In this document: in pieces, positions 6,118 to 63,122 of the stretch
How the letters are laid out: the number at the start of each line of letters is the position of its first letter
Numbering within the stretch: the stretch's first letter is position 1
From: an uncultured Actinomycetes bacterium
GTDB lineage: Bacteria; Actinomycetota; Acidimicrobiia; IMCC26256; DASPTH01
NCBI GenBank assembly: GCA_963726965.1
Contig: CAVSEI010000006.1
Span: 454,448 to 518,447, forward strand
Direction of reading: 5' to 3'
Length of the DNA stretch: 64,000 nt
The notes under the pieces: model-generated
Seen by the model: the letters and a program-made list of their open reading frames with translations, nothing else
Databases searched by the model: none
Told to the model about the DNA's origin: nothing
Made by a program: the position numbers and the translations under genes

Positions 6118-6247
6118 CTCTACTGCTCCGCTTCCACTGCGTTACTTCCGCTCACTTCGTTCGCTCCATCTCTCTGGGTCGCTCGCTGCGAGCCGGGTTA
6201 CCCGGCTCGCACACCGCTCGCTCGCCACTTCGTTCCCGGCTCTCTGG
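6118..6247 (-). repeat. palindromic intergenic repeat element, copy A (rpsM-rpsK spacer)
   Basis: 130-nt spacer with a perfect 23-nt palindrome GCGAGCCGGGTTACCCGGCTCGC at 6188-6210. 10-bp direct repeat GTTACTTCCG at 6141-6150 and 6247-6256. The 23-nt block 6118-6140 matches 12679-12701 at 22/23 positions. Related cores at 12720-12742 and 62005-62027. Confidence 0.65.
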
Positions 6248-12678: not shown

Positions 12679-12796
12679 CTCTATTGCTCCGCTTCCACTG
12701 CCACGATGGCTCGCTCCCTGCGGCTCGGGATACCCGAGCCGCGGACGGTCGCTCGCGTGCGAATTCCGTTCGCGTTGATCGTGTCCGGTTGATGGT
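12679..12796 (-). repeat. palindromic intergenic repeat element, copy B (rplE-rpsN spacer)
   Basis: 118-nt spacer. Palindrome GCGGCTCGGGATACCCGAGCCGC at 12720-12742, which differs from copies A and C by three compensated base pairs. Shares the 23-nt start-proximal block with copy A. Confidence 0.65.
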
Positions 12797-42006: not shown

Positions 42007-42771
42007 CTACAGTTTTGCGACTTGGCCGAGTTCGAGTTCGACGGGGGTTTCACGGCCGAAGATGTTGACCAGCACGGTGAGCTTCGAGCGGGCGACGTCG
42101 ATGTCGGAGATCGCGCCGTTGAAATCGGCGAAGGGCCCGGTCGTGACCCGCACCTGTTCACCGACCTCGTACTCGAGGCGCGGCCGCACCTTCTTCTCCT
42201 GACCGGGCTCGACCGCGGCGCCGGAGCCGAGGATCCCCTCGACCTCCTTCCGGGACAACGGGGTCGGGCGGGCGCCGTTCCCGACGAAGCCGGTGACACC
42301 CGGCGTGTTGCGCACGACGTACCACGAGTCGTCGTCGAGGGCCATGCGCACCAGCAGGTACCCGGGGAACACCTTCTTCTGCACGACGACCTTGCGGCCA
42401 CCCTTGAACTCGATGACGTCCTCCATCGGGATGACGACCTCGAAGATCTGTTCCTCGACGTTCATCGAACGCACCCGGCTGGCGAGGTTCTGCTTGACCT
42501 TGTTCTCGTAGCCCGCGTAGGTGTGCACCACGAACCAGTCGCCCGGCCGCTCGAACGGGCTCGGCTCGCGCGGCGCGACCTCTTCGTCGTCCTCCTCGGC
42601 GATGACGTCGAGCAGTTCGGCCTCGGCGAGATCACCGGGCTCGACCACCTCGACGACCTCGACGACCTCTACCACCTCGGCGATCTCGGCGATCTCGGCG
42701 ATCTCGGCGATCTCCTCGTCGGCGCGGTTGTCAGGTTCGGGAAAGACAGCAGTCATGGGTACATCGATCAA
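42007..42771 (-). CDS. nusG: transcription termination/antitermination factor NusG with repetitive acidic N-terminal extension
   Basis: 254 aa. N-terminus [25 protein letters not shown], then the NGN domain [18 protein letters not shown] and a KOW domain. Confidence 0.93.
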
Positions 42772-43259: not shown

Positions 43260-46200
43260 TCAGAACTGCACCACCGACCCGGTGCTGAACGAGCCGCTGA
43301 TCGCGGTGCCGACGGCGTTCTTGATCGCGCTGTCGGGGGTGTAGGTGGCGGTGCTGGTCCCGACGGTACCGAGGGTCCCGGCGCCGGCCGAGGCGCCGAG
43401 GGTGACGGTCAGCGTCCAGTTGGTCGCGTCCCAGGTGATGGTCGACGCCGAAGCCCCCGAGCCGCTGAAGGTCCGGTTTCCGCTGGTCACGTACCCGACC
43501 GCCCCCAGGTTCAAGGTCCCCAGGTGGAACGTGCACGTGGCACTGGTCACGGTCACGGTGTCGTTGCCGGCCCCGCCGTCGGTGAGGGTCACCGTCACGT
43601 CGTTGGCCCCGGACAGGGACTGGTCGGTGAGGTTGCCGCTCCACGTCGAGCACAGCGAGGCCACCCCGAGGGTCTCGGAGTAGGTCACGACGATGCGATC
43701 ACCGGCCTGGACCCGCCCCGCGGTGCCGCCACCGTCGACCAACTGGACCGCGATCGTGTTCGGCGCGGCATTCTGCACTTCGACCGGGATCACAGGTGAC
43801 GTGAAGGTGTTCCCCGCCTTGTCGGTCGTGACAACCCGTACGTCGTAGCGCCCGTCGGCGAATCCCGAGGTCGTGTTCCAGGTGACCGAGTACGGCGAGG
43901 TCGTGTCGGCCGCGCCGAGGTTGGTCCACGTACCCGCGCCGCGCGGCGACGTCTGGAATTGGGCCGAGGACACACCTGAGCCGCTGTCGGCCGAGTTCGC
44001 CGACACCGCGACGCTCGCGCCGGACACGAACGCGTTGGTGGCGGGGGCCGTGACCGAACCGGACGGCGCGGTGTTGTCGACCCGCACGCCGGCGATCGTC
44101 GCCGACGTGAACGTGGTTGCCAGGTTGTCCGTCGTGATCACCCGGAGGTCGTAGAGCCCGTCGGCGAACGCCGTCGTGTCCCAGGTGGTGGCGTACGGCG
44201 TCACCGTGTCAGCCGCGCCCAGGTTCGACCACGTCCCCGCGCCCGCGGGCGACACCTGGAACTGCGCCGAGGCCACCCCGGAACCGGCGTCGGCCGAGTT
44301 CGACGTGACCGCCACCGCGGATCCTCGGACGTTCGCTGCGGCCGCCGGCGCGGTCACCGATCCGGTCGGGGCGGTCGAATCGATCGTGAACGTGAACGCG
44401 CTCGTCGCGGTGTTCCCCGCCGCGTCGGCCACCGTCACCGTGTAGGTCCCCGGCGCCGACGCGCCGCTCGTCCACGTGAACGCGCTCGACGAGTAGGGCC
44501 CACCCGACGGCGTCGTCACCGTCTCGACCGCGTGCGTCCAGCCCGCCGTCGCCTGCACCGGGAAGGACGCCGACGCCGGGCCCGATCCCGCATCGGTGAC
44601 CGTCGCGACCAGGCTGAAGCTGCCCGCCGCGCTCGCCTTGAAGTAGATCTTCGTGCCGACTCGGAACGCGCCCGTCGCGCCGGGCGCGACCACGGTCGAC
44701 ACCGTCGGGACCGTGTTGTCGACGCGGACCGTCGTGAGCGCCGACGTGAAGGTGTTGCCGGCCTTGTCGGTGGTGATGACCTGGAGGTCGTAGAGGCCGT
44801 CGGTGACCCCGGTCGTGACCCAGCTCGCGGAGTACGGCGACGTCGTGTCGGCGGCGGCGACGTTGGTCCACGTGTTGGTCCCCGCGGGCGAGCGCTGGAA
44901 CAGCGCCGAGGAGACTCCGGATCCGGTGTCGGCCGAGTTCGCACTGATGGTCACCGTGGCCCGGAGGTTGGCCGATGCGAGTGGCGCGGTGATCACGCCG
45001 GTGGGCGCAGTGTTGTCGACGCGAACGCTGGCGATGGTGGCCGAGGTGGTCACGTTCCCGGCGACGTCGGTGGTGATCACCCGCAGGTCGTAGAGCGCAT
45101 CGGCGAACGTCGTGGTGTCCCAGGTCACCGCGTACGGCGCGCCCGTGAGCGTGGCGCCGAGGCTGGTCCAGGTCGCGGCCGAGTGGGGCGTCGACTGGAA
45201 TTGCACCGTGGCCACGCCCGAGCCGGCGTCGGCCGAACTCGACGTCACTGCGACCGCGGTCCCGCGCACGTTGGCCGACGCCGCGGGCGCGGTGACCGCA
45301 CCCGTGGGCGCAGTGTTGTCGACCCGCAGGTTGGTGACCACCGGTGAGGTGAACGAGTTCCCCGCCTTGTCGGTGGTGACGGCGCGCAGGTCGTAGAGAC
45401 CGTCAGGGGTACTCGTCGTCGTCGTCCAGGTGACGGCGTACGGCGCGGTCGTGTCGGCAGCACCCTGGCTGCTCCACGTGTTCGTGCCCGCCGGCGAGCG
45501 CTGGAACTGCACCGACGTGACGCCGGAACCGACGTCGGCGGAGTCGGTCGACATCGTGATGGCGCCGCGGAGGACGCCGTTGGTGGCCGGGGCCGTGACC
45601 GAGCCGGACGGCGCGGTGTTGTCGACCCGCACACCGGCGATCGTGGCCGACGTGAAGGTGTTCCCGACGTTGTCGGTCGTGATCACGCGCAGGTCGTACA
45701 ACCCGTCGGCGAACGCGGTCGTGTCCCACGTCGCCGCGTACGGCGTCACCGTGTCGGCCGCGCCGAGGTTCGACCACGACCCCGCACCGGTCGGCGATGA
45801 CTGGAACTGTGCCGACGCCACGCCCGACGATGCGTCTGCAGAGCTCGACGTGACCGCGACCGCCGATCCGCGGACGTTCGCGGCGGCCGCCGGCGCGGTG
45901 ACCGAACCCGTCGGCGCGGTCGAGTCGATCGTGAACGTGACCGCGCTCGTCGCGGTGTTCCCCGCCGCGTCCGTCACCGTCACCGTGTACGTCCCCGGCG
46001 CCGACGCGCCGTTCGCCCACACGAACGAACTCGAGGTGAAGGGGCCATTCGCGGGCGTCGACACGGTCTCGGCGGCGTGTGTCGTCCAGCCGGCCGCGCT
46101 CAGGATCGGGAAGGTCGCCGAACCGCCGCCCGAGCCCGCGTCGGTGACGGTGGCAACCAGCCGATACGAACCCGCCGCGTTCGCCTTGAAGTAGACCTTG

Positions 46201-47681
46201 CTGGTCGCCGCGTTGAAGAACGCGCCCGTCGGACTGGCAGCCAACGCCAGCGAGACCGCGGGCGCGGTGTTGTCCACCCGCACGCTCGTCACTGCCGCGG
46301 ACGTGAACGCGTTGCCGACGTTGTCGGTCGTGACAACGCGCAGGTCGTAGAGACCGTCGGTGAACGACGTGGTCGTCCAGGTCGTGCTGTACGGCGCGGT
46401 GACGTCGGCGGTCCCGAGGTTCGACCACGACCCCGCTCCCGCGGTCGAGATCTGGAACTGCGCCGATGCGACACCCGATTGCGTGTCTGCGGAATCCGCG
46501 GTGACCGTCACCGTCGCCCGCACGTTGGTCGACGCACCGGGCGCGGTCACCGAGCCCGACGGCGCCGTCGTCTCGGCGGCGAAGCTGACCGTCGACGTCG
46601 AGCTGTTGCCGGCGACGTCCGTGGCGGTGACGGTGTACGCGCCCGGGGTACCCGCGGCGTTCACCCAGGTGAACGTGGTCGACGAGTACGGACCGCCGAC
46701 GGGCGACGCGACGGTCTCCGCGGCGTGCGTCGTCCACCCGGCGGCGGTGAGCACGGGAAAGGTCGCGGACGCCGCGCCCGATCCTGCATCGGTGACCGTG
46801 GCCACCAGACCGAAGTTCCCGGCACCACCCGGATTGAAGAAGACGGTGGAGCCCACCGTGGCCGCGTTGTTCGCGCCCGCGGCCAGCGCGATCGACACCA
46901 CCGGTGCGGTGTTGTCGACCCGCACGTTCGTCACCGCCGCCGACGTGTGGGCGTTCCCGACGTTGTCGGTCGTGACCACGCGCAGGTCGTAGAGACCGTC
47001 GGTCACCGCGGTCGTGTCCCAGGCCACGGAGTACGGCGACACGGTGTCCGGGGCCCCGATCGTGGTCCACGTGCTGCCGCCGTGCGGCGCGCGTTGGAAC
47101 CGAGCCGAGGCGACCCCGGACTCGGCGTCGGCGGAGTCCGACGTCACCGCCACCGCGGTGCCCCGTACGATCGCGCCTGCCGCAGGCGCGGTCACCGCAC
47201 CAGTCGGCGGGGTCGAGTCGGGATCGTCGACGTTGAGGGCGTCGCTCACGTCGCTCGTCGCGGTCCAGCTGGAGAAGTTCGCGGTGACCTGCCACACGTA
47301 GGTCCCGGCACCCGGCACGTCGGAGCACGTCGTCGTGGTGATCCGGATCGTCGGTGACGTCCCGCACACGTCGGTCCACGTGGAGTCGTTCTCGTCGAAG
47401 CGTTCGACGCGGTAGTCGACGGTGCCGGCCCCGGGGGGGCTCGCCGCCGCCCAGTCCAGCGAGACCACGCCGTTCGTCGCCGAGACCGACGGGACCCCGG
47501 GCTCGCCGAGGGTGCCGGCCACTGACGGGGCGGCACCGAAGCCCCCGGTGGTCCAGAACCCGAACGCGAGGGCCGACAGCGCGCCGAGGGCGACGGTCGA
47601 CAGGGCGAGCAGGAGCAGGCGGCGGGGGGCTGAGGTCATGACGGGAAGCCGGGTTCGGTGGGGGCGTGGCGTCGCGCGCAC
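43260..47681 (-). CDS. 1473-aa cell-surface protein built of Ig-like repeat modules (N-terminal anchor/signal, FN3-like domain, 8 type-A + 3 type-B ~95-aa modules, distinct C-terminal domain)
   Basis: Single uninterrupted ORF. Hydrophobic N-terminus RRLLLLALSTVALGALSALAFGFW. Type-A modules end in VRVDNTAP and carry SGV-x-S-x-QFQ...PY...W-T/D-TT...DGLYDLRV-x-TTD-x-x-GN, which I recall as Big_7-type Ig domains. Type-B modules carry [11 protein letters not shown]...GWT-x-HA-x-ETV...YTVT-x-x-D-x-AGN. No LPXTG motif. Confidence 0.8.
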   Translation of the reverse strand: MRATPRPHRTRLPVMTSAPRRLLLLALSTVALGALSALAFGFWTTGGFGAAPSVAGTLGEPGVPSVSATNGVVSLDWAAASPPGAGTVDYRVERFDENDSTWTDVCGTSPTIRITTTTCSDVPGAGTYVWQVTANFSSWTATSDVSDALNVDDPDSTPPTGAVTAPAAGAIVRGTAVAVTSDSADAESGVASARFQRAPHGGSTWTTIGAPDTVSPYSVAWDTTAVTDGLYDLRVVTTDNVGNAHTSAAVTNVRVDNTAPVVSIALAAGANNAATVGSTVFFNPGGAGNFGLVATVTDAGSGAASATFPVLTAAGWTTHAAETVASPVGGPYSSTTFTWVNAAGTPGAYTVTATDVAGNSSTSTVSFAAETTAPSGSVTAPGASTNVRATVTVTADSADTQSGVASAQFQISTAGAGSWSNLGTADVTAPYSTTWTTTSFTDGLYDLRVVTTDNVGNAFTSAAVTSVRVDNTAPAVSLALAASPTGAFFNAATSKVYFKANAAGSYRLVATVTDAGSGGGSATFPILSAAGWTTHAAETVSTPANGPFTSSSFVWANGASAPGTYTVTVTDAAGNTATSAVTFTIDSTAPTGSVTAPAAAANVRGSAVAVTSSSADASSGVASAQFQSSPTGAGSWSNLGAADTVTPYAATWDTTAFADGLYDLRVITTDNVGNTFTSATIAGVRVDNTAPSGSVTAPATNGVLRGAITMSTDSADVGSGVTSVQFQRSPAGTNTWSSQGAADTTAPYAVTWTTTTSTPDGLYDLRAVTTDKAGNSFTSPVVTNLRVDNTAPTGAVTAPAASANVRGTAVAVTSSSADAGSGVATVQFQSTPHSAATWTSLGATLTGAPYAVTWDTTTFADALYDLRVITTDVAGNVTTSATIASVRVDNTAPTGVITAPLASANLRATVTISANSADTGSGVSSALFQRSPAGTNTWTNVAAADTTSPYSASWVTTGVTDGLYDLQVITTDKAGNTFTSALTTVRVDNTVPTVSTVVAPGATGAFRVGTKIYFKASAAGSFSLVATVTDAGSGPASASFPVQATAGWTHAVETVTTPSGGPYSSSAFTWTSGASAPGTYTVTVADAAGNTATSAFTFTIDSTAPTGSVTAPAAAANVRGSAVAVTSNSADAGSGVASAQFQVSPAGAGTWSNLGAADTVTPYATTWDTTAFADGLYDLRVITTDNLATTFTSATIAGVRVDNTAPSGSVTAPATNAFVSGASVAVSANSADSGSGVSSAQFQTSPRGAGTWTNLGAADTTSPYSVTWNTTSGFADGRYDVRVVTTDKAGNTFTSPVIPVEVQNAAPNTIAVQLVDGGGTAGRVQAGDRIVVTYSETLGVASLCSTWSGNLTDQSLSGANDVTVTLTDGGAGNDTVTVTSATCTFHLGTLNLGAVGYVTSGNRTFSGSGASASTITWDATNWTLTVTLGASAGAGTLGTVGTSTATYTPDSAIKNAVGTAISGSFSTGSVVQF

Positions 47682-61476: not shown

Positions 61477-61971
61477 TTACTTCTTCACCTCGGCGCCGAT
61501 CTCGAGCGGCTCGGGAACGGGAACGGATTCCATCCATTCGCCGAGCTTGCGCTTGTCGTGCAGCAGGTTGGCGATGTTGGACTCGGAGTACTCGTAGTCA
61601 GGACTCCAGAACAACGCGTCGAACGGGCAGACCTCGACGCAGATACCGCAGTACATGCAGAGCGCGTAGTCGATGTCGAAGCGATCGAGCACGCTCACCG
61701 TACGGTCGCGTCCGCCCTCACGACGCGGCGGACGTTTCTCCTTGTGGCCCTCGATGTAGATGCACCAGTCGGGGCACGATCGCCCACAGAGCATGCAGAC
61801 CGTGCAGTTCTCTTCCTTCAGCGCGATCACACCGCGTGCACGCGTCGGCGGGTCTTCCCGCTCGTGGGGGTACTGCACCGTCACCGCCGGCCGCAGCATC
61901 GTCTTGAACGTGATGCCGAGACCGCTGATGACGCCGGGGACCTTGGGCTTCTTCATCGTGAATATTCCCAT
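61477..61971 (-). CDS. nuoI: NADH-quinone oxidoreductase subunit I (2x[4Fe-4S]); possible 36-aa N-terminal extension from ATG 62079
   Basis: MGIFTMKKPKVPG... with CTVCMLCGRSCP and CMYCGICVEVCP. The frame stays open upstream through repeat copy C to a second ATG that overlaps the nuoH stop. Confidence 0.9.
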   Translation of the reverse strand: MGIFTMKKPKVPGVISGLGITFKTMLRPAVTVQYPHEREDPPTRARGVIALKEENCTVCMLCGRSCPDWCIYIEGHKEKRPPRREGGRDRTVSVLDRFDIDYALCMYCGICVEVCPFDALFWSPDYEYSESNIANLLHDKRKLGEWMESVPVPEPLEIGAEVKK

Positions 61972-62078
61972 CAGAACGCCACCTTCATCATGGCGTCGCT
62001 CACTGCGAGCCGGGATACCCGGCTCGCGGCCGTTTGCTCCACCGCGTACCTCTCCCGCGTCTCGGCTCCGCCTGCCCA
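61972..62078 (-). repeat. palindromic intergenic repeat element, copy C (nuoH-nuoI junction)
   Basis: Palindrome GCGAGCCGGGATACCCGGCTCGC at 62005-62027. 16-bp direct repeat CCCATCAGAACGCCAC at 61967-61982 and 62075-62090, exactly 108 bp apart. Confidence 0.7.
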
Positions 62079-63122
62079 TCAGAACGCCACTTTGAAAACA
62101 CCCGTGAGGAGGATGTTGATCAGGCCGATCGGGATGAGGAACTTCCACGCCAGGGCCTGCAGCTGGTCTTCGCGCAGTCGTGGGTAGGTGAAGCGCACCC
62201 AGAACATGAGGAACGAGACCGCCATGATCTTGGCGAACAGGACACCGGGGCCGAGGAAGCGCATGACGCCGTCGGAGATCCCCCACGACGCGGGGAGCGC
62301 CCAGCCTCCGAGGAACAGCGTCGCCGCGATCGCGGAAAACGCGAACGCGGTGCCGAACTCGCCGATGAAGAAGAAGAGAAACCGGAAGCCGGTGTACTCG
62401 ACCATGTACCCCGCGACGAGTTCGCTCTCGGCGACCGGCATGTCGAACGGCGTCTGCGTGAGCTCGGCCTGCGACGCGATCAGGAAGAGGGCGAACCCGA
62501 CGAACTGGGTGAGGATGAACGGGAAGCCGAGGCCGCTCCACCCGAAGATCGAGCCGTTGCTCTGCACCAGCACGATGCCCTGCAGGCTCATGGTGCCCGC
62601 CTGGATGACCACGCCGACGACTGCGAGGAGGAGCGGCAACTCGTAGGCGATCAGCTGCACGGCGGCGCGCAGCACGCCGAGCAGCGAGAACTTGTTGGCG
62701 CTGGCCCACCCGGCCATGAGCACGCCGACGACCGAGAGGCTCGACACCGCCAGTGCGTAGAACACGCCGACGTTGAGGTCCTTGACGATGATGTCGGGCC
62801 CCGCCGGGATCACGAGGAAGATCAAGAACGTCGAGATGACGACGACGGCCGGCGCGAACGCGAAGACACGCTTGTCGGCCCGGGCCGGAATGATGTCTTC
62901 CTTCTGGATGAACTTGATGCCGTCACCGACGAGCTGGAACCAGCCGTGGAAGCCGCCCGGGTCCATGGGACCGAGACGGCTCTGCATGTGGCTCATCATC
63001 TTGAGGAGGAACACGTAGCCGAGCACCAGGGCGGTGAGCGGCACGATCATCAGGATGAAGACCGTCTTGATCGCGAGGGTGGTGCCCCACCCGATGTCGA
63101 GCGCGAGCAGTGAATGGATCAC
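62079..63122 (-). CDS. nuoH: NADH-quinone oxidoreductase subunit H
   Basis: 347 aa polytopic. ...YELPLLLAVVGVVIQAGTMSLQ..., ...FRFLFFFIGEF... Confidence 0.9.
   Translation of the reverse strand: MIHSLLALDIGWGTTLAIKTVFILMIVPLTALVLGYVFLLKMMSHMQSRLGPMDPGGFHGWFQLVGDGIKFIQKEDIIPARADKRVFAFAPAVVVISTFLIFLVIPAGPDIIVKDLNVGVFYALAVSSLSVVGVLMAGWASANKFSLLGVLRAAVQLIAYELPLLLAVVGVVIQAGTMSLQGIVLVQSNGSIFGWSGLGFPFILTQFVGFALFLIASQAELTQTPFDMPVAESELVAGYMVEYTGFRFLFFFIGEFGTAFAFSAIAATLFLGGWALPASWGISDGVMRFLGPGVLFAKIMAVSFLMFWVRFTYPRLREDQLQALAWKFLIPIGLINILLTGVFKVAF

Follow-up and report, generated by a model that had tools for sequence, protein, structure and literature searches.

A dispersed hairpin repeat between duplicated copies of the nuoH/nuoI junction in an uncultured member of the Acidimicrobiia

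The 64,000-nucleotide stretch of DNA studied here (the window), from contig CAVSEI010000006.1 of an uncultured bacterium of the class Acidimicrobiia, carries three copies (A, B and C) of a short hairpin-bearing repeat. Copy C splits the point of the nuo operon where the stop codon of nuoH overlaps a start codon, and it is flanked by two copies of that junction. Most relatives show a compact junction at this place, copy C belongs to a repeat family whose hairpin covaries, inserts between duplicated junctions recur in other lineages, and the distance from one junction copy to the next (the period) is biased towards 2 mod 3. From these sequence comparisons, we consider it probable that copy C is a non-coding dispersed repeat of the Acidimicrobiia inserted at nuoH/nuoI, and that the duplicated junction keeps nuoI translatable. 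Overlapping stop/start junctions have been thought nearly closed to insertion, because a single short segment is at once coding end, ribosome-binding site and start. On at least three or four occasions, in different lineages, an insert would have opened the nuoH/nuoI junction of this essential respiratory operon, and the repair has always been a second junction copy, usually plus an open reading frame (ORF) that could relay translation between both copies.

The nuoH/nuoI junction of the window

All features of this section lie on the minus strand, and ranges written from the higher to the lower number follow the reading direction. In the ORF list, nuoH (62079-63122) encodes 347 amino acids (aa) from its GTG and ends in KVAF followed by a TGA (62081-62079). 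Its identity is backed by NuoH at 76 related loci, which match the 69 C-terminal residues, and by the presence of PF00146 in fused gene calls among the protein-search matches. The 3′ end of the gene reads TTC AAA GTG GCG TTC TGA, and an ATG (62079-62077) overlaps the stop codon in a TGATG. The gene nuoI (61477-61971) encodes 164 aa from the ATG at 61971, while its conserved N-terminus, MKKPK, begins at the ATG at 61956, with which the MKKPK/MRKPK N-terminus of close relatives aligns.

The junction itself is found twice. The 16-mer GTGGCGTTCTGATGGG, comprising the last nuoH codons, the TGA, the overlapping ATG and GG, occurs at 62090-62075 (upstream copy) and at 61982-61967 (downstream copy), 108 nt apart from start to start. 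When up to two mismatches are allowed, those are just the two matches in the 64 kb, with 0.09 expected, and none of 100 shuffles contained two. Including the preceding codon, AAA or AAG followed by GTGGCGTTCTGATGGG, the repeat extends to 62093 and 61985, so that 62093-62075 and 61985-61967 are identical at 18 of 19 positions, the sole difference being the synonymous third base of a Lys codon (AAA upstream, AAG downstream).

Between the junction copies lies an insert of 92 nt (61983-62074), with a 5′ part of 34 nt (62074-62041) and a 3′ part of 58 nt (62040-61983) that corresponds to the family unit. The core of the unit, as delimited by alignment (61993-62040), consists of GGAGCAAACGGCC, the hairpin, AGTGAGCGAC and GC, and it is the best nhmmer match of the window to a profile of 131 copies (62039-61993, E = 1.6e-13). 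The hairpin (62027-62005) reads GCGAGCCGGG-TAT-CCCGGCTCGC in DNA and would fold in RNA as a perfect, G+C-rich stem of 10 bp closed by a UAU loop (GCGAGCCGGG UAU CCCGGCUCGC). A scan for perfect arms found no other hairpin of at least 9 bp in 61983-62074. An intrinsic terminator was looked for at this hairpin, where no T-run follows 62005 and the terminator scan raised no flag.

Two reading frames cross or leave the insert. From the ATG that overlaps the nuoH stop, 36 codons (61972-62079; MGRRSRDAGEVRGGANGREPGIPARSERRHDEGGVL) run open and in frame into nuoI, as a possible N-terminal extension of NuoI. The nuoH frame is likewise open across the insert, and at a G+C content of 67% we estimate from base composition a chance of about 0.44 per frame for such a stop-free run, so the 36 open codons are not remarkable in themselves, and by chance one length in three is divisible by 3. 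The other frame is a small ORF, MMKVAF-stop (61971-61991; ATG ATG AAG GTG GCG TTC TGA), whose TGA overlaps the nuoI ATG at 61971-61969; its ATGs come from the element (GCC ATG ATG AAG) and the remainder is the duplicated nuoH end. Within the downstream copy, the Shine-Dalgarno-like motif AAGGTGG (61979-61985) lies 7 nt before the ATG at 61971, with the same sequence and spacing as in the junctions of relatives that lack the insert, and AAGGTGG-N7-ATG would thus be a putative Shine-Dalgarno site. As for the AAA of the upstream copy, the Lys codons of nine window genes are AAG 101 times and AAA 3 times (101/104 AAG), and nearly all relatives have AAG at this junction position. The AAA turns AAGGTGG into AAAGTGG, which may weaken the Shine-Dalgarno-like motif in front of the extension ORF, although a single base is only suggestive.

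Empty sites in related genomes

Related junctions were collected by a metagenome scan with NuoI, which gave 80 loci, plus two further loci (L001 and L002); 76 loci hold both gene ends, and all related sequences are metagenome-assembled genomes (MAGs) or metagenome contigs. The NuoI relatives from the protein search are labelled as MAGs of Acidimicrobiia or Acidimicrobiales. At 73 of the 76 loci the nuoH/nuoI junction is compact, usually AAGGTGGCGTTCTGATG, with 14-49 nt between the nuoH stop and the conserved Pro-Gly codons of nuoI. TGATG or TAATG occurs in 44 relatives, and in 18 the stop codon is directly followed by ATG or GTG. The motif AAGGTGG is found at -12 to -6 of the nuoH stop in 59 of the 76. 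The closest relatives (L003-L006), with 94-96% amino-acid identity in NuoI by tblastn, show ...AAGGTGGCG(T/A)TCTGATG or ...TAGATG, and then at once M(K/R)KPK. Compared with the closest empty sites, the window has, beyond the 108 nt, another 15 extra nt (61971-61957, encoding MGIFT), and a soil contig (X3) that skips exactly 123 nt, from 61957 to 62081, represents the empty site.

The earlier note on this DNA, made from the letters of the sequence, had proposed an insertion into the nuoH stop/nuoI start overlap and predicted a compact junction in relatives, and the collected loci bear out both. Its description of a 16-mer found twice 108 nt apart around a palindrome-bearing element, of a hairpin placed between the two cistrons, of a mini-ORF that restores the TGATG coupling at the ATG at 61971, and of a family to which copy C belongs also agrees with what we read in the sequence and with the two further window copies returned by the profile search.

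Smaller extras without a hairpin are also seen at nuoH/nuoI in some relatives. One locus (L017, 3081-3118) has a 15-nt tandem duplication of the junction, another (L012, 3972-4022) has a mini-ORF, MAVAF-stop, resembling the NuoH end, and L001 (9999-10043) has 21 extra nt. These extras, together with 61957-61971 of the window, could be precursors or footprints of element insertion. L001 (ENA contig_66839) is a 95%-identical relative whose nuo operon is split into many short gene calls (NuoH as 260 plus 61 aa, NuoI and NuoJ fused). This looks as if long-read assembly had introduced indels, and the 21 extra nt call for caution.

The NuoI N-terminus before PG(L/V)I-GLG differs among relatives by short Pro/Lys repeats (MPKLPKPKVPG and others; L008, L011, L014, L019, L021, L028, L035, L036), suggesting frequent small duplications and a tolerance of length changes there. 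One NuoI relative (P0016) has an internal duplication in an Arg-rich loop (RRPPRERGRERTASAPPRGEGGRERTVS). Some database proteins join the NuoH C-terminus to NuoI (P0007, P0020 and P0116; for example ...KVAFCMKREIKG, where the stop reads TGC) and are either real read-through fusions or the result of sequencing or frame errors at the junction, and two others (P0002 and P0039) join NuoI to NuoJ.

A family of hairpin repeats in Acidimicrobiia

Copies A, B and C of the window have in common the pattern GAGCGA-N(3-6)-[GCGNNNCGGG TAW CCCGNNNCGC]-AGNGAGCGA-(N)CCAT. Family loci were gathered with the pattern GCGNNNCGGGTAWCCCGNNNCGCNNNGAGCGA, taking one genome per species, a procedure that fixes most of the core. 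At least 117 stretches match it, nearly all of them from MAGs of Acidimicrobiia or Actinomycetota, and the exact pattern matches, including those in the window and in two of the related nuo loci (L020 and L027), number at least 137. A profile search gave 183 matches in the 865 kb of collected loci, and exactly 3 in the window. The units are found single, as copy C, or in head-to-tail arrays of 2-4 with a period of 54-60 nt, although units of 77-119 nt also occur, and a long form of the unit has an extra 5′ module ending in CTCGCCAG. In the consensus, the ends of the unit are direct and not inverted (GGAGCGA... / ...GAGCGA-NCCAT).

The pairing of the hairpin is under selection, as shown by the covariation of its arms. 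In 59 copies, most of them without constraint from the search pattern, 94% of the stem cells are paired, and changes on both sides occur in 77 cells, against 19.6 ± 4.3 in shuffles, none of 500 reaching this number. The covariation score, 0.372, falls to 0.05-0.08 when the partners are slid, and again 0 of 500 shuffles attain it. Double changes affect 6 of the 10 stem pairs. The three stem positions left free by the pattern are fully paired in 80% of 137 copies versus 33% in shuffles; 13 or more distinct complementary triplets occur there, and the UAU loop is near-invariant.

The three window copies all lie on the minus strand between minus-strand genes. Copy B (12706-12755) is found between rplE and rpsN (encoding a type Z S14), has a hairpin (12720-12742) with compensatory changes in its arms, and has an orthologue in a relative (L111) whose RplE and RpsN are 95-98% identical. 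Copy A (6175-6224; hairpin 6187-6211) lies between rpsM and rpsK. Across the family, copies between co-directional genes are in sense and antisense orientation in a proportion of 37 to 15, the orientation of the genes being deduced from composition by a frame test based on G+C at third minus second codon positions. An estimate from stop-to-stop ORFs was dropped, because high-G+C ORFs run through the element and make it unreliable. Copies precede many unrelated genes, among them atpG, tuf, rplN, rpsJ, rpsK, rpsN, nuoJ and ku, names that were assigned from the first codons of the translations. Within the nuo operon, junctions that lie downstream of nuoI, mostly nuoI/nuoJ, carry family copies in several relatives (L027 4441-4494, L034 1509-1560, L017 3628-3679, L008 1960-2011, L129 and L152), and the window has none at those junctions.

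At gathering score, Rfam returned tRNAs alone in the window and in 18 element-bearing loci, and the best sub-threshold match at copy C was at chance level. A literature search found no described repeat of the Acidimicrobiia, nor any REPIN/RAYT system (paired repetitive extragenic palindromic, REP, sequences and their associated transposases) in Actinobacteria, and thus the family is apparently undescribed. Contigs of a soil metatranscriptome (X2) hold the 47-nt core of copy C (61994-62040) at 100% identity in other contexts, which hints that family members are transcribed, though DNA carry-over into such a library is possible. The element was also seen in contigs labelled as Bifidobacteriaceae or Bifidobacterium breve MAGs (L099, L127, L131, L135, L148 and L152). 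The genome of B. breve has about 59% G+C, and since these contigs have 66-73%, they are probably mis-binned or mislabelled Acidimicrobiia.

Inserts between duplicated junctions recur in other lineages

Three other lineages have inserts at the same nuoH/nuoI junction, in each case between duplicated junctions. In L020, AAGGTGGCGTTTTGA is followed by an element with the same core and then by ATGAAG AAGGTGGCGTTCTGATG, with an insert of 110 nt and a duplicated piece that reads AAGGTGGCGTT[T/C]TGA. In L027, AAGGTGGCCTTCTGATG precedes the core and ...CCATGTAGGTGAGTTCTGATG comes after it, the duplication is degenerate and the insert measures 92 nt. In L053, the duplicated piece measures about 30 nt (AAGGTGGTGTTCTGATGRAACGCCTGCAGC), its period is 107, and the hairpin or hairpins in between are different. 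In pairwise DNA comparison, the gene flanks of the filled lineages share only about 80% identity, and every one of these lineages has closer relatives with an empty site; L020, for instance, is 95% identical to the empty L014. The cores of the window and L027 are 86% identical and those of L020 and L027 73%, with host flanks of 79-84% in all three pairs. In their 5′ parts, the inserts of the window, L020 and L027 show no relationship to each other, and more similar hosts do not have more similar cores. We read these inserts as probable cases of repeated gain.

Similar architectures are found at other gene pairs. In L135, the duplication measures 23 nt: it begins with GAGGAG, takes in an ATGA overlap and reaches the fourth codon. 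L195 has one of 26 nt. In L120, two units are each followed by ATG AAG GCG GGN TGG TGA, which restores the ...GGG TGG TGA of the upstream gene. The design of the window's MMKVAF ORF recurs in L020 (..MKKVAF-stop) and in L120 (MKAGW-stop).

Among 89 solo copies, the longest flanking repeat is mostly 6-8 nt, like in a control of mismatched pairs, and only about 5 have one of at least 12 nt, with lengths of 13-29 nt; flanking 10-mers are somewhat enriched (11% vs. 3%). The long-duplication copies that were inspected (window, L135, L195 and L182) split a gene junction or sit in a tandem array, and the long duplication of L107 is a partial tandem unit. Long flanking duplications are therefore not a general by-product of family copies. 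The five that could be aligned start at the Shine-Dalgarno-like motif of the downstream gene (AAGGTGG three times, (T/A)AGGTG and GAGGAG). Shine-Dalgarno-like 4-mers are about 3.5-fold enriched 5-14 nt after the core, a zone that is the start either of the next unit (GGAGCGA) or of the ribosome-binding site of the gene.

Relay frames between the junction copies

The seven cases with long duplications have periods of 108 (window), 107, 110, 92, 98, 128 and 77 nt, six of which are 2 mod 3. Under a binomial model, six or more of seven would fall in one given class with a probability of about 0.007, as computed by hand for a test that was chosen after seeing the data. A period of 2 mod 3 is what a separate ORF between both junction copies needs. 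Four cases have such an ORF from the ATG of the first junction to the stop of the second. In L027, the ATG that overlaps the nuoH stop opens an ORF of 30 codons whose TGA overlaps the nuoI ATG, and the corresponding ORFs have 36 codons in L053, 34 in L135 (from ATGA to ATGA) and about 43 in L195. L020 has lost the upstream ATG (TGAAAG), and its internal ORF ends in ...KKVAF-stop at a TGATG. The window is the exception: its period of 108 is 0 mod 3, and the orphaned ATG consequently reads into NuoI as a fusion. Comparison of these loci suggests that coupling, and not frame preservation, is the recurrent and presumably selected property.

In this light, three suggestions of the earlier note stand in part. 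Frame and coupling were said to be preserved by the insertion: the geometry of coupling is re-created at the true start, but the frame is not a recurrent feature. The 36-aa extension of NuoI has its frame open into nuoI as described, but it is not conserved, given the lost ATG of L020, the L027 ORF that ends at the second TGATG and the AAA that weakens the motif in the upstream copy. The 16-nt duplication was taken for a target-site duplication; the 16-mer is indeed target sequence, being absent from other family copies, but a duplication of the transposase type is doubtful in view of the scarcity and variable length of flanking repeats at solo copies.

How the junction could tolerate the insert

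In the intact junction, the last nuoH codons (AAG GTG GCG TTC TGA) would double as ribosome-binding site and spacer of nuoI. Since the same codons would serve nuoI initiation, an insert could persist there only if the segment exists twice. After entry of copy C into the overlap, the upstream copy would finish nuoH, and the downstream copy would supply nuoI with AAGGTGG-N7-ATG and a stop that overlaps the start. The duplicated segment, with its ribosome-binding site, stop and start, is thus likely to keep the downstream gene translatable. We infer that ribosomes most likely cross the insert, melting the hairpin, in one of two ways, either by resuming translation at the ATG that shares bases with the nuoH stop, whose frame in the window would continue into NuoI, or from the element-borne ATGs of MMKVAF, the ORF of 6 codons with a TGATG at its end. 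As a third route to NuoI, ribosomes could initiate directly at the Shine-Dalgarno-like motif of the downstream copy.

Selection may be why long duplications appear at tight junctions alone. If the upstream gene contains the ribosome-binding site, an event would survive only when its duplication covers the whole stretch from Shine-Dalgarno motif to stop, or more. As for the origin of the duplication, our preferred guess is a copy-in guided by microhomology (a double template switch or illegitimate recombination), which would have as its anchor the Shine-Dalgarno-like GGAG/AAGG, a sequence found at the start of each family unit as well. Microhomology of the target Shine-Dalgarno with the unit boundary (A/GGAG) would fix the left edge of the duplication and leave the right edge free, and we prefer such a copy-in over a transposase with a fixed staggered cut. 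Selection and copy-in are not exclusive of each other, and the element-free tandem duplications of L017 and L012 could be precursors or footprints of the process.

A stronger proposition can only be put forward tentatively, and we lean against it: the family would colonise overlapping junctions of essential operons by a dedicated or strongly biased route, which copies the segment from Shine-Dalgarno to stop beyond the insert with a period of 2 mod 3, giving a relay ORF. If true, this would be a general 'operon-safe' insertion strategy, convergent with that of mycobacterial repeats (see below), as well as a natural system for termination-reinitiation across a stable hairpin, and it could point to a new insertion mechanism that makes long, Shine-Dalgarno-anchored duplications.

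Alternative explanations

A role of the hairpin unit as mainly a host-serving RNA element, for processing or stabilising mRNA, as a protein-binding site or as a translational enhancer before highly expressed genes, with copy C tuning the NuoH:NuoI ratio or the stability of the transcript, is possible but on balance rather unlikely. The strong covariation and near-invariant loop, the preference for the sense orientation, the recurrence before atpG, tuf and ribosomal protein genes (rplN, rpsJ, rpsK, rpsN) as well as before nuoJ and ku, the conservation of copy B in L111 and the core in soil metatranscriptome contigs all speak for it. Against it, copies occur in both orientations and beside unrelated genes, tandem arrays and a patchy distribution across close relatives are what selfish repeats typically show, the element is missing at nuoH/nuoI in the closest relatives, no Rfam family matches, and the metatranscriptome library may contain DNA. 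More doubtful is a classical non-autonomous transposon, that is, a MITE (miniature inverted-repeat transposable element) moved by a trans-acting transposase with staggered cuts, for which the 16 nt would be the target-site duplication. IS1634/IS1549-type elements make long direct repeats of variable length, and a variable duplication would point to an enzyme of this type. It is true that the duplicated sequence derives from the target and directly flanks the insert, that the hairpin-less tandem duplications of L017 and L012 could be excision footprints, and that 10-mers are enriched around solo copies. Nevertheless, terminal inverted repeats are lacking, the ends of the unit being direct, and in about 85% of solo copies the flanking repeats do not rise above background. 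No transposase was found adjoining copies, and the one widely spaced inverted pair that was read encloses a coenzyme A-transferase-like ORF (named from its sequence). Moreover, the left edge of every aligned long duplication falls on a Shine-Dalgarno-like motif, something that a random stagger would not give.

The copies of the window, L020 and L027 could instead descend from one ancient, vertically inherited insertion lost many times by recombination between the flanking repeats, with separate selection on either repeat copy keeping the two identical. Precise deletion can readily occur where direct repeats of 15-20 nt enclose a hairpin, both repeats are constrained (one as coding end and stop, the other as ribosome-binding site and start), and the window and L027 cores remain close. 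This explanation requires, however, many independent precise losses, as the site is empty at 73 of 76 loci, those of every filled lineage's nearest relatives among them. In addition, the inserts are unrelated in their 5′ parts and differ in length (108, 110 and 92), the L020/L027 cores are more diverged than the window/L027 ones under host flanks that are alike, L053 has a different hairpin at the same place, and the near identity of L020 to an empty locus suggests that filled sites are nested in empty clades; we consider it unlikely. That the 36-residue extension is functional, with a longer NuoI in the source organism, seems improbable to us: its frame is open, its ATG overlaps the nuoH stop in a way that favours re-initiation, the N-terminus of NuoI varies in length in relatives (14-49 nt before the PG codon) and in-frame fusion of a repeat to a gene is known (PMC3184786), but no protein-search match aligns to it (query coverage 72-90%), L020 has its ATG destroyed and L027 is out of frame, the upstream motif is weakened, and the Arg/Gly/Glu-rich peptide is simply the element read in one frame. 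An exact look-up of the three possible NuoI products (200, 164 and 159 aa) found none on record. Finally, a junction duplicated by an assembly artefact is very hard to defend. The reads of the source assembly were not found in public runs, but the two copies enclose 92 nt that hold a genuine member of the family, the same design appears in independent assemblies (L020, L027, L053, L135 and L195), and an assembler would not be misled by a repeat of just 16 nt.

An insertion of a dispersed repeat, repaired by a second junction copy, remains our preferred reading, and several points count against it. No relative of the 34 nt at the 5′ end of the insert (62074-62041) was found in any fetched locus. 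The mod-3 statistic comes from seven cases that were chosen for having long duplications, and the pattern-based collection biases the diversity of the family, its copy number per genome and its orientation ratios. The translation of the relay and extension ORFs, the use of the ATG at 61971 versus that at 61956, and an RNA role of the hairpin are predictions. A single ancient insertion at nuoH/nuoI with many precise losses retains, as said above, some small likelihood. As for raw data, the best public runs contain at most 10% of the sampled words, and no run with the source reads was found; the four that were searched at the junction hold related organisms only, one of them with an empty site, and family cores in other contexts.

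Comparison with known repeats

Mycobacterial interspersed repetitive units (MIRUs) form head-to-tail arrays of 50-100-nt units and, to our knowledge, are described as having no dyad symmetry. In PMC12548453, which cites Supply et al. 1997, they appear as mobile units that insert at start codons, with an internal ORF coupled to the gene with a -4 spacing. The units of the Acidimicrobiia resemble them in being short, non-coding, apparently mobile and located between the genes of operons, in their head-to-tail arrays, and in the small ORF within or through the unit that overlaps the stop and start of its neighbours and keeps the coupling (MMKVAF in the window; L027, L053, L135 and L195). On the other hand, the host is not Mycobacterium, the family has a conserved, covarying hairpin of 10 bp, and its relay ORF is built partly from the duplicated host junction. 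The likeness is one of behaviour, and we file the family only as working like a MIRU.

With the REP sequences, the bacterial interspersed mosaic elements (BIMEs) and REPINs (PMC3184786, PMC2817692), the family shares a small, G+C-rich extragenic palindrome in many copies, compensatory changes in the stem and a frequent position just after genes and between cistrons. It differs in that its arrays are head to tail and not alternating, the stem stands between direct GAGCGA motifs, a GTAG-type leader is lacking, and junction duplications are not a described feature of REPs. Inverted pairs are few (L177 at 57 nt, L194 and L119 at about 160-200 nt, others at 1 kb or more), and the tandem arrays, with spacings of up to about 120 nt, are all same-strand. 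No RAYT was seen beside copies, for which the ORFs of one widely spaced inverted pair were read and no proper search was made. The palindromic elements of Rickettsia (PMC3184786) add residues to host proteins by in-frame read-through, like the possible NuoI extension, but here the fusion is at the very N-terminus and looks incidental (one case of seven), a separate relay ORF being usual. MITEs such as Correia, ERIC and RUP (PMC3184786) are also short, non-autonomous, intergenic, foldable and sometimes co-transcribed. They are defined by terminal inverted repeats and a target duplication of fixed length (PMC3184786), and neither was found, the former in the unit consensus and the latter among the 89 solo copies.

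By analogy, then, the family seems to work like a MIRU and to look like a REP, with a relay ORF derived in part from the duplicated host junction. It would offer a concrete picture of how selfish or semi-domesticated repeats live inside operons, and it would carry the idea of the MIRU from mycobacteria into a little-studied class, one of high abundance in soil and water. In practical terms, annotators should be aware that such inserts yield spurious N-terminal extensions and fused NuoH-NuoI gene calls.

Other features of the window

A GA-rich, hairpin-less dispersed module lies directly before rpsK and rpsN in the window (6118-6174 and 12679-12705, both on the minus strand). It ends in ...GAACGAAGTGAGCGGAAGTAACGCAGTGGAAGCGGAGCAGTAGAG-ATG or ...GGAGCGAACGNAGTGAGCGGAAGTAGCGNAGTGGAAGCGGAGCARTAGAG-ATG, with a TAG two nt before the start codon, and may be a module for translational coupling or enhancement. 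The same module forms a 62-nt tandem without hairpin in L103 (3555-3700) and occurs at two unrelated places in L110 (2282-2327 and 6163-6187). A 10-nt repeat of the rpsM end next to copy A (CGGAAGTAAC) was examined as a candidate target duplication and rejected: its downstream copy belongs to this separate module, and it is thus no evidence for target duplication.

Elsewhere in the window, 43788-47154 contains six copies of diverged direct repeats of about 300 nt, with 60-84% identity and a spacing of 300-650 nt, in one apparent long gene, which are probably repeated protein domains. A 9-nt tandem repeat of the CGGCGATCT / CGACCTCGA type forms a short in-frame minisatellite at 42636-42728.

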